Shown: positions 25,819 through 27,878 of the stretch, piece by piece
How positions within the stretch are numbered: position 1 is the stretch's first letter
Layout: each line of letters begins with the position of its first letter
Source: Promethearchaeota archaeon
GTDB lineage: Archaea > Asgardarchaeota > Lokiarchaeia > Sigyniarchaeales > SOKP01
DNA: 64,000 nt
NCBI GenBank assembly: GCA_016839555.1
Contig: JAEOUA010000006.1
Location: 512,001-576,000 of the forward strand
Direction: 5' to 3'
The notes under the pieces: generated by a model
Seen by the model: only the letters and a program-made list of their open reading frames with translations
The model's database searches: none
Told to the model about the DNA's origin: nothing
Translations under genes and position numbers: made by a program

Positions 25819-27141
25819 TTGGCGATATTTATTAAAAACATCTGTGCCCTTTCCTATTTTCATAGAAAGATTGGTCCATTAGTATTTTATTCTTATCCCG
25901 AAAATATGTTAGATGATGAATTATCCTGTAGAATTGCCAATATAATGGATCAACAATTTATAGAAGGATTTTTTACTCATTCTTTTAAGGAGACAATAAC
26001 TATGAATTATTATTTTGAAATTCAATCTGATTGGGCACGGGGAAACAGAGATATGTTAATGGTGTCTATTATTTTTAACCAGCAACCTAAGACAGATACA
26101 GAAGAAAAAGTTAAAAGCCTCTGCGTAAATTTTTCCCAAAGATTAAAATCAAATGAAGAGATTTACACAGCATTTCATATTAGCGATATTAATAATTTTG
26201 AAGAGGATGAACAGGAATTAATTATTAAGAACAACGAATTGGTAAAATTATGGGTTAAGGAATTATATTGGGCAACTGTGGAAGTCACGAGGGAAAAGAC
26301 AGAGGAAGAGAGATTAGCAAGTATTTTAAGTAAACGTCATATATTTTTAATTATAAAAAAGCTTACAAAAGGTCCTTTACCCTTAGAATGGTTAAAAGAT
26401 TGGTTTCAAGAACATTTTCCAGATGAAGATTTTGACAAAATGATCGATACTTTGGTAGAAAGACAGCTCATTTTCATAAATCAAATAGGAATTGTGGAAA
26501 AATATGTATTATTATTGAAGGAAGTTAATGCAGAACGTATTCCTCCTGATAATATTATTGAATATATAGATGAAATTCCAGAATTAATCGGCTTAATTCT
26601 TCCTAAAGTTCAAAAATATTTTAGTAATTATGAACAAAAAAGTGAAGATGATTTAAAAGAAGATGCTTTTCTGCTTTTTCAAATTATTTCTGATCCAAAA
26701 ATGTATAATGTTCTCTCTGAATTGAGAAATAGCCTTATTCCCAGAGATAAATTACCTAAATTGATTTCTAAAAGAGATCTCACTGCATTAAGCAGAGTAT
26801 TAGATCATTTGAAAAATAATGATATAATTGAAGAATTAAAATTTAAAGATGAAAGATATATTATCTTAAAAACTAATTTGCAAATAACTACTGCCTTTCC
26901 AGAATATTTAAGAAAACTATTGCCCAAAGAAACTATTCCCGTAATTGCAAATCCTTTTAGCACAAAAATAGAAGAAAAAGAAAGACAAAAGGAAATTGCT
27001 GAAATACTAAAAGATGCGAGAAAAGAAAAAAAAAATACGAAAGAAGAAAGGATTACCCACTTTCTAGAAAATTTGGCATCTAAATCAAAAGACGCTAAAG
27101 AATATACAAATTCGGGACAAAGTAAAAAAGAACATAAATAA
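25819..27141 (+). CDS. Longin/uDENN-like domain protein with probable C-terminal winged-helix segments
   Basis: N-terminal LSYFHRKIGPLVFYSYP ... GFFTHSF pattern, like uDENN/longin (NPRL/folliculin-type) first strands. Confidence 0.6.
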   Translation: MAIFIKNICALSYFHRKIGPLVFYSYPENMLDDELSCRIANIMDQQFIEGFFTHSFKETITMNYYFEIQSDWARGNRDMLMVSIIFNQQPKTDTEEKVKSLCVNFSQRLKSNEEIYTAFHISDINNFEEDEQELIIKNNELVKLWVKELYWATVEVTREKTEEERLASILSKRHIFLIIKKLTKGPLPLEWLKDWFQEHFPDEDFDKMIDTLVERQLIFINQIGIVEKYVLLLKEVNAERIPPDNIIEYIDEIPELIGLILPKVQKYFSNYEQKSEDDLKEDAFLLFQIISDPKMYNVLSELRNSLIPRDKLPKLISKRDLTALSRVLDHLKNNDIIEELKFKDERYIILKTNLQITTAFPEYLRKLLPKETIPVIANPFSTKIEEKERQKEIAEILKDARKEKKNTKEERITHFLENLASKSKDAKEYTNSGQSKKEHK

Positions 27142-27180: not shown

Positions 27181-27310
27181 AGATGTCAGAAAAAGGATTA
27201 GAAAAAGACAATAATCATTTTAAAAATAAATGACATCAGTTTGGGGCAACACATTCATTGTTATGAGCAATAACTCTTTTATATTGTCACAAGCTCATCA
27301 TCTGTCATCT
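27181..27310 (-). ncRNA. Box C/D 2'-O-methylation guide sRNA
   Basis: Minus strand: C box ATGATGA (27301-27295), CTGA (27239-27236), C'-like ATGATTA (27218-27212), CTGA (27189-27186); ATGACA/TGTCAT stem flanks the first C/D pair; guides complementary to conserved rRNA sequences. Confidence 0.75.
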
Positions 27311-27398
27311 GTCAAAATCAATTAATATTTATTAACTTTTTGTTAAAATTTAAAAAAGAGTGTTTATTTTTCTCCTTTCTGTTGGTTATTAAAATATT

Positions 27399-27878
27399 CT
27401 ATGGATTTTTCTCTATTTTTGAGCCTTTTCTTTTAAAATAATATTTTCTGAGATAATGTCCTGGTCTCTTGAAGCCCCCATATTCTTCAATTAGGTCTTT
27501 TAAGCCATTTCTTTTTGATATTTTTTTCTTAAACTTTTCGTATTCTTCTTTGGAAAGTTCTTCTTCGTTCAATAAAAAATTTAAAATTTCTATAGCTTGT
27601 TCCTTATGAGAACATCTTCTTATAAAGTCAATGACTGTAGGATTTGTTAATTCTTTTATATTAGAATTCATCTCATTTTCATTAGTTTCTTCACCTATAG
27701 ATTCTACATCATAATCAATAGAATCTATTTTTAACATCTTCTTTTCTTCTTGCATTTCGTTCATTAGATGGGGTAAATATTTACTTAATTCGTTTTTATC
27801 ATAATCCACATTTAAACCATTTTCCCTATTAATTTTTGGTTTTTTAAAGTTATTTTTATTATTTTCTTTTTTATTCAT
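27399..27878 (-). CDS. DUF2095-like archaeal protein
   Basis: YLPHLMNE ... NPTVIDFIRRC....AIEILNFL ... KRPGHY pattern. Confidence 0.7.
   Translation of the reverse strand: MNKKENNKNNFKKPKINRENGLNVDYDKNELSKYLPHLMNEMQEEKKMLKIDSIDYDVESIGEETNENEMNSNIKELTNPTVIDFIRRCSHKEQAIEILNFLLNEEELSKEEYEKFKKKISKRNGLKDLIEEYGGFKRPGHYLRKYYFKRKGSKIEKNP

Follow-up and report, generated by a model that had tools for sequence, protein, structure and literature searches.

The window analyzed here, a stretch of 64,000 nucleotides from a Promethearchaeota archaeon, carries an unannotated 79-nt box C/D sRNA gene on its minus strand (27308..27230). The gene lies between a DUF2095 gene, its conserved upstream neighbor on the same strand (27399..27878; Pfam PF09868, E = 7.5e-14), and a convergent longin-like ORF of 440 codons on the plus strand (25819-27141), for which no Pfam match was found. 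This place is fixed across Lokiarchaeales. Among the 116 sRNA loci that we fetched, 98 have a DUF2095 homolog, in keeping with the conservation downstream of DUF2095 orthologs by which the original prediction could be checked; 99 have a homolog of the longin-like ORF, and the neighbors that were found are arranged as in the window in 99. In nine loci (L013, L014, L057, L061, L084, L109, L146, L147, and L156), which represent one genus of the window's family and the third family of the order, the sRNA is inverted within the same longin-like/DUF2095 spacer.

Read along the minus strand, the RNA opens with the 5' arm of a terminal stem, AUGACA (27303..27308), which pairs with the 3' arm UGUCAU at the other end (27230..27235). 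A single G separates the 5' arm from box C, AUGAUGA (27295..27301). There follow the D' guide GCUUGUGACAAU (27283..27294), antisense to the 5' strand of 23S helix 89, and a D' region (27275..27282) composed of AUAA, at the canonical 12-nt distance, and AAGA, the GA-bearing D' box that adjoins a hairpin. This internal hairpin between D' and C', GUUAU-UGCUC-AUAAC (27260..27274), has a covarying stem and is followed by an A and by the degenerate box C', AUGAAUG (27252..27258), whose first four bases, AUGA, never vary in the family, unlike the last three. The D guide UGUUGCCCCAAA (27240..27251), antisense to the 23S P-loop, fills exactly the 12 nt between C' and box D, CUGA (27236..27239). Boxes C and D are invariant in our alignment of 65 sequences, and the C box, D box, and closing stem named in the original prediction are all present in the letters. 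The terminal stem is directly followed by a T-rich run, UUAUUUUU (27222..27229), and at least four T in a row occur within 40 nt downstream of the sRNA in 69 of 80 distinct homologous loci; the run likely serves as an archaeal terminator. Directly upstream of box C, the window shows a 7-nt tandem duplication, GACAGAU GACAGAU (27302-27315), not seen in relatives. Folding of the single 81-nt sequence was of no help (z = -1.67).

The evidence for the gene comes from comparison among genomes. In a BLAST search of 40 relatives, the stretch 27308-27227 was matched in ten genomes, which belong to six genera, and an exact-pattern scan over one genome per prokaryotic species returned 79 matches, including the complete genome of Ca. 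Lokiarchaeum ossiferum; all but one bear Asgard or uncultured-archaeon labels. With a covariance model made from the 65-sequence alignment, we found a single copy per genome in the window's family (f1; 23 of 25 genomes), in the sister family (f2; both genomes), and in a third family of Lokiarchaeales (f3; the one genome), while the four genomes of the order's fourth family gave no match and the rest of the phylum almost none. A weak model match in one further genome (G050) was set aside, its terminal arms not being complementary. Identity to the four closest relatives is 84-96% inside 27231-27307 and drops to 24-47% in both flanks. For the terminal stem together with the first three pairs of the hairpin, 92.3% of the stem cells of the 65 sequences are paired, compared with 72.1% in shuffles and 29-50% in controls with slid partners, and double-sided changes are found in eight of the nine stem pairs. 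The terminal stem shows compensatory double changes in all six of its pairs among the 65 homologs, with 89% of cells pairing.

The genome encodes the expected machinery: fibrillarin and Nop5 genes stand side by side, and two L7Ae-family genes are also present. Given the conservation, the stem covariation, the fixed neighbors, and the enzyme genes, we conclude from the comparative data that the 79 nt of 27308..27230 form a genuine gene for a box C/D sRNA. The central claim of the original prediction, a box C/D sRNA, is thereby upheld by conserved boxes, covarying stems, and sharp identity boundaries; the transcription of the RNA, its assembly into an RNP, and the methylations that it would direct are predicted. 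Near-identical copies of the sRNA occur both on Promethearchaeota contigs and on differently labeled ones (L045, L046, L052, L054, L076, L077, L102, L103, and L114), the odd labels being Hermodarchaeota, Odinarchaeota, Hodarchaeota, Thorarchaeota, and one "Nanopelagicaceae bacterium"; the labels or the binning of these contigs may be wrong.

Parsed in full, the family follows a regular plan. Box C (7 nt) is followed by the 12-nt guide NCUURUGACAAN and a variable D' region, and then by the hairpin, box C' AUGAnnn (7 nt), the 12-nt guide UGUYGCCCCANN, and box D. In 64 of 65 members, C' and D stand exactly 12 nt apart, as is canonical for archaea. The internal boxes are degenerate on both sides: C' (AUGAAUG in the window) retains only AUGA, and the last four bases of the D' region are mostly NNGA, with AAGA in the window and UAGA, UUGA, CGGA, CAGA, or CUGA in relatives. 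In the window's clade, an insertion of 4 nt (AUAA or UUAA) stands between the D' guide and the GA-bearing D' box, and the C-to-D' spacer there measures 16 nt to AAGA and 12 nt in many relatives. One syntenic copy in a congener (L126; G004:C145:43925-44003) departs from the plan, with a C'-to-D spacer of 15 nt and a guide ending in CGCUACCCCAAU that pairs poorly with the P-loop and has its best match near 23S position 1057. This copy may be retargeted or decaying.

Between D' and C', f1 has a hairpin of 15-17 nt with a covarying stem and f2 has 8-11 nt. In archaeal sRNAs, this distance is normally 3-9 nt and forms a K-loop, a feature that is typical of the class and not needed for function; such a short spacer is absent from the window RNA. 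The hairpin stem covaries clearly, with alignment column pair 45-59 being CG in 53 sequences and UA in 10. With this stem of 4-5 bp, the C'/D' motif would be closed into a true kink-turn, which is unusual for an archaeal sRNA. The hairpin loop UUGCUC(G) (window 27265-27269, alignment A2) is conserved in f1 above a stem that covaries. Inspection by eye suggests two possible partners for the loop, 23S CGAGUAA beside the helix 89 target and the GAGC in the D' region. The columns of the alternative hairpin GAGC/GCUC, likewise inspected by eye, show no covariation, and we rejected it.

For the targets, we turned to the rRNAs. In the genome of the window (G000), the rRNA operon is split over two contig ends, the end of C5 (603237-603911) and the start of C12 (1 to ~1250). 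Its assembled rRNA consists of 16S positions 4-658 and the 3' third of the 23S, the latter beginning near E. coli position 1890; the 5' 1.9 kb of the 23S and the 3' half of the 16S are unassembled. The Rfam LSU model gave no match in the assembly, and the 23S fragment on C12 was found by motif search. The genome's own rRNAs being incomplete, full target scans were carried out on the rRNAs of relatives, and the family-wide scan covered seven 23S rRNAs from two families; genera g2 and g11, which have the commonest guide type, have no assembled 23S. Scoring targets by the longest contiguous run proved misleading, since the P-loop and a site in the peptidyl-transferase center (PTC) then looked equal and the helix 89 match of AUGACAA-type guides, with one A:C mismatch, was hidden. 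We dropped that score in favor of a mismatch-tolerant family-wide scan using all distinct guides. E. coli positions are those of a gapless alignment to the E. coli 23S sequence, checked against known modified positions.

The P-loop of the genome reads GGCUGGGGCGGCUCAC (GGCUGGGGCGGCUCACUCC in the 23S fragment at position 357 of contig C12), and the D guide pairs with it over nine contiguous base pairs at guide positions 3-11, seven Watson–Crick and two G:U, followed by a U:U mismatch. A duplex of 13 bp had been predicted; this figure was wrong, having been built on a consensus rather than on the genome's own rRNA. The predicted placement of the methylation holds on the own P-loop, as D+5 falls on the second G of GGGG, the equivalent of E. 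coli G2251 (the numbering agrees with PMC4644070). At D+5, all 65 aligned members have a Watson–Crick C-G pair. A single 9-bp match is by itself weak evidence, given that 32% of shuffled guides match 23S plus 16S at least as well as the best site of the D guide, the 9-bp PTC site. In the family-wide scan with the D guides, no 23S site ranks above the P-loop in six of the seven rRNAs (G004, G010, G045, G032, G041, and G028), and in the remaining one (G009) it comes second; its score lies about 4 SD above the mean.

Variation in the guide points in the same direction. A change of U9 to C turns the G:U pair with the P-loop into G-C, and in f1, with C as the target base, the G that some members have in place of A2 gains a further pair. 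In f2, guide position 2 is C and the target base is G, a co-change of guide and target relative to f1. The variant guide AGCUGCUCCAAA of one genome (G001), located at the same syntenic locus, pairs over 10 bp with the P-loop when aligned by hand. Since the P-loop is the top site family-wide and the guide variants keep or improve the pairing, the D guide is most likely aimed at the P-loop G equivalent to G2251, as the comparison of guides and rRNAs suggests. The genome also has one gene for a SpoU-family methyltransferase, and with it a stand-alone route to the P-loop Gm is conceivable. In locus L011 of the genome with the variant guide, a second, isolated copy of AUGUUGCCCCAAACUGA is found ~300 nt downstream of the sRNA (G001:C325:1014-1034), the syntenic sRNA itself having AGCUGCUCCAAA. 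The isolated copy has no recognizable C box or terminal stem and may be a duplication relic.

The strongest competitor for the D guide is the PTC site itself. The form of the guide found in the window's clade, the U9 variant UGUUGCCCC, could aim at, or also at, the sequence GGGGUAACA of the peptidyl-transferase ring (E. coli 2445-2453) and direct a Gm at the G2446 equivalent. In the own 23S, this site offers 9 bp, eight Watson–Crick and one G:U, slightly better than the P-loop, and it stands two bases upstream of the D' target. A modification there would have precedent if, as we assume in our own numbering, yeast Gm2815 and human Gm4392 are the G2446 equivalent and thus the same position. The family as a whole speaks against this target. 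Most members have C at guide position 9, which mismatches A2450 of the site, a base that is to our knowledge universally conserved; the guide variants of G001 and G010 lose the pairing with GGGGUAACA, and the site is outside the top four of the family-wide scan in every rRNA. It also appears unlikely that two guides of one RNP would bind stretches 2 nt apart at once. Both Gm2815 and Gm4392 are listed as conserved eukaryotic sites (PMC11542601), but with the family pattern as it stands we consider the PTC assignment improbable and retain the P-loop as the target of the D guide.

The D' guide GCUUGUGACAAU pairs with GUUGUCACGAGU of the own 23S over 12 bp, nine Watson–Crick and three G:U, a match equaled by 1.8% of shuffles. 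The target corresponds to E. coli 2456-2467, the 5' strand of helix 89, and lies ~210 nt downstream of the P-loop in domain V. A congener (G004) has a different D' guide that forms 10 Watson–Crick base pairs with the same helix 89 site, and the site is the top 23S match of the family's D' guides in all seven rRNAs. Guide and target covary at two positions, with U-A in f1 versus C-G in f2 at position 10 and A-U in f1 versus G-C in f3 at position 3 (target GUCGUCGC, guide GACGAC). A at guide position 8, present in most family members, faces C in the available f1 rRNAs. For f2, helix 71 (CUUGUCGUAUAAG) was tried as a D' target; it gives a 9-bp run yet does not rank first when mismatches are tolerated.

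Whether the D' guide could direct a methylation depends on the spacer. In the 12-nt frame, guide position 5 forms an A-U pair, and a 12-nt C-to-D' spacer, in the members that have it, directs this position to the U2460 equivalent. The 16-nt spacer of the window would put a terminal G:U beside a mismatch at the fifth position, a geometry that makes D'-guided methylation doubtful in the window's clade. The pairing evidence nevertheless indicates that the RNA is a double guide with both guides inside the 79 nt. The double-guide idea of the original prediction thus survives in its number of guides, though not in their location: the second guide is the D' guide to helix 89, which the prediction had overlooked, and the one proposed in a downstream unit finds no support.

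Taken together, the most probable reading of the 79-nt RNA, to which we assign a probability of about 0.8, is that of a box C/D guide for the archaeal L7Ae-Nop5-fibrillarin 2'-O-methyltransferase, with the D guide directed to the P-loop G and the D' guide to helix 89. The C and D boxes, closed by the 6-bp stem, would form a terminal kink-turn, and the degenerate D' (AAGA) and C' (AUGAAUG), closed by the 5-bp hairpin, a second, internal one, where most archaeal sRNAs have a short K-loop. The 12-nt D guide, bound to the P-loop of 23S helix 80, would place fibrillarin on the second G of GGGG. The D' guide would bind helix 89 on its 5' strand (E. coli 2456-2467) and, in relatives with the 12-nt spacer, aim at U2460; in the window's clade, with its 16-nt D' spacer, the function of the D' duplex may be limited to holding or chaperoning the rRNA.

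A stronger version of that last point would have the sRNP form and serve mainly as a folding chaperone for strands of helices 80 and 89, methylating little or not at all. The short D duplex with its wobble pairs, the 16-nt D' spacer of the window's clade together with the degenerate D' of many relatives, and the location of the two targets ~210 nt apart in one domain (V) would suit such a role. Dennis and colleagues are said to have proposed chaperone roles for archaeal double guides in 2015. The C'-to-D spacer of exactly 12 nt and, in 65 of 65 members, the Watson–Crick C-G pair at D+5 speak against this role, however, and we regard a purely chaperoning RNA as still less probable than the PTC assignment.

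The original prediction had also envisaged one molecule of ~130 nt (27310..27181), resembling a eukaryotic snoRNA, in which a second C/D unit guides modification of the 16S 785 region and the two units are held together by a 10-bp spacer pairing. The letters on which it was based are there on the minus strand: AUGAUUA (27218-27212), UCUAAUCCUUUUU (27202-27190) followed by CUGA (27189-27186), and the 10-nt complement of UAUUGCUCAU (27272-27263) and AUGAGCAAUA (27178-27169); one relative (G020) has an 8-nt AGCAAUAA downstream. Conservation, however, ends at the terminal stem, with the T-run next, standing between the first and the second unit. Identity of the second unit to relatives is 29-47%, the background level, compared with 84-96% for the first, and in the BLAST search against 40 relatives the downstream part matched only AT-rich noise. 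No terminal stem encloses the second unit, and the G that would pair with box D is missing from its C box.

Its proposed target fares no better. The 16S of the window genome ends at ~658; in two relatives, the 785 region of the 16S reads CCGGAUUAGA and puts a U:C mismatch at D+5, the outcome that the original prediction had named as telling against its second guide. The best rRNA match of the second unit is equaled by 94% of shuffles. Shuffling the AT-rich spacer yields a 10-bp inverted repeat in 14.7% of cases, the one in the window is missing from most relatives, and the fold of the 145-nt stretch is no more stable than shuffles (z = -0.52). The second unit, the 16S guide, and the 130-nt molecule are unsupported, and we reject the long form.

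A weak model match prompted us to search 400 genomes of the phylum by pattern, and matches were returned in 23 genomes from ten genera outside Lokiarchaeales. The reversed-pattern control gave none. Most of the 23 matches (loci L158-L179, e.g., L164, L168, and L179) are compact C/D sRNAs in which the P-loop guide GCCGUCCCAG stands before D', and most of the compact copies have a helix 89-type guide, with an RUGACAA or GCGACGA core, before D. Three of these genomes (G115, G052, and G080) have an assembled 23S, and there the two guides find their best sites in the P-loop and the 5' strand of helix 89. The compact RNAs of other Asgard archaea and the Lokiarchaeales RNA thus have the same two 23S targets and differ in that the former have the guides in reversed order, a short D'-C' spacer, and, in most copies, canonical internal boxes. 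Unlike the Lokiarchaeales form, the swapped form does not adjoin the DUF2095 or the longin-like gene.

These likenesses raise the tentative possibility that the Lokiarchaeales RNA is a circularly permuted descendant of an Asgard-wide P-loop/helix 89 double guide. The old terminal stem would then survive as the internal hairpin, and the UUGCUC loop could make an extra contact with rRNA or protein; if true, a stem-closed internal kink-turn at C'/D' would have replaced the archaeal K-loop. A precedent exists in Pyrobaculum, where the C/D sRNA families sR56 and sR57 are circularly permuted and have guides in common in permuted order (Lui et al. 2018, PMC6009581), an arrangement explained by circularization and reinsertion (PMC6009581). 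The Pyrobaculum families are paralogs in one genus, whereas the two Asgard arrangements occur in different orders. No synteny common to the Lokiarchaeales and swapped forms was found, and guides to the same targets must look alike anyway; we put the permutation forward as a hypothesis of rather low probability.

Methylation of the P-loop G is achieved by different means in the three domains: bacteria use a dedicated enzyme, and eukaryotes and some archaea a guide RNA. Against Rfam, the window RNA matched no family at the gathering or E-value threshold, the search giving only weak eukaryotic C/D look-alikes. The best scores were 22-24 bits against thresholds of 41-90 (snoR10 RF01587, snR67 RF01177, snR60/Z15 RF00309, and sR32 RF01119), with snoR10 at 22.3 bits against a gathering threshold of 65 and snR67 at 13.4 bits against 55. 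The consensus of plant snoR10 (RF01587) ends in UGCCCCAAACUGA, identical to the window guide plus box D and directed at the same universally conserved nucleotide, and yeast snR67 (RF01177) is assigned to Gm2619, the same G. Because any guide to the P-loop must carry the same antisense, the likeness to snoR10 is no evidence of common descent. In bacteria, the same nucleotide is methylated by the stand-alone Gm2251 methyltransferase RlmB (PMC11542601), a protein-only enzyme of the SpoU family that, unlike the sRNA route, uses no guide RNA.

Our literature search returned no paper on Asgard C/D sRNAs and no published C/D sRNA catalog for the lineage. The RNA described here fills this lineage gap and gives a concrete molecule to examine in cultured Lokiarchaeum strains. 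No known organisms are more closely related to eukaryotes than the Asgard archaea, and by our comparisons a conserved guide to the P-loop G appears to be present in Loki-type and other Asgard lineages. For the evolution of guide RNAs, the stem-closed internal kink-turn and the swapped order of the guides offer modest points that can be tested.

Guided methylation of the G2251 equivalent is not new among archaea: a prediction for three of the seven archaea examined has been published (Dennis et al. 2015, PMC4644070), and Gm1950 of Haloarcula marismortui has been assigned to aFib plus an sRNA (PMC11542601). Like the archaeal sRNAs for the G2251 equivalent, the window RNA would belong to the same class, work with the same enzyme, and address the same P-loop nucleotide of helix 80. 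It differs from them in its lineage, Lokiarchaeales, in having no detectable sequence homology to them and matching no archaeal Rfam family, and, as features of its own, in a C'/D' motif closed by a hairpin of 15 nt, in place of the short K-loop, and in a partner guide to helix 89. It has the defining features of an archaeal box C/D sRNA, the exceptions being the degenerate internal boxes, the 16-nt D' spacer of the window's clade, and the long D'-C' hairpin. What is unusual is confined to the internal kink-turn hairpin and the possible permutation, and nothing here alters the established picture of how box C/D RNPs work.
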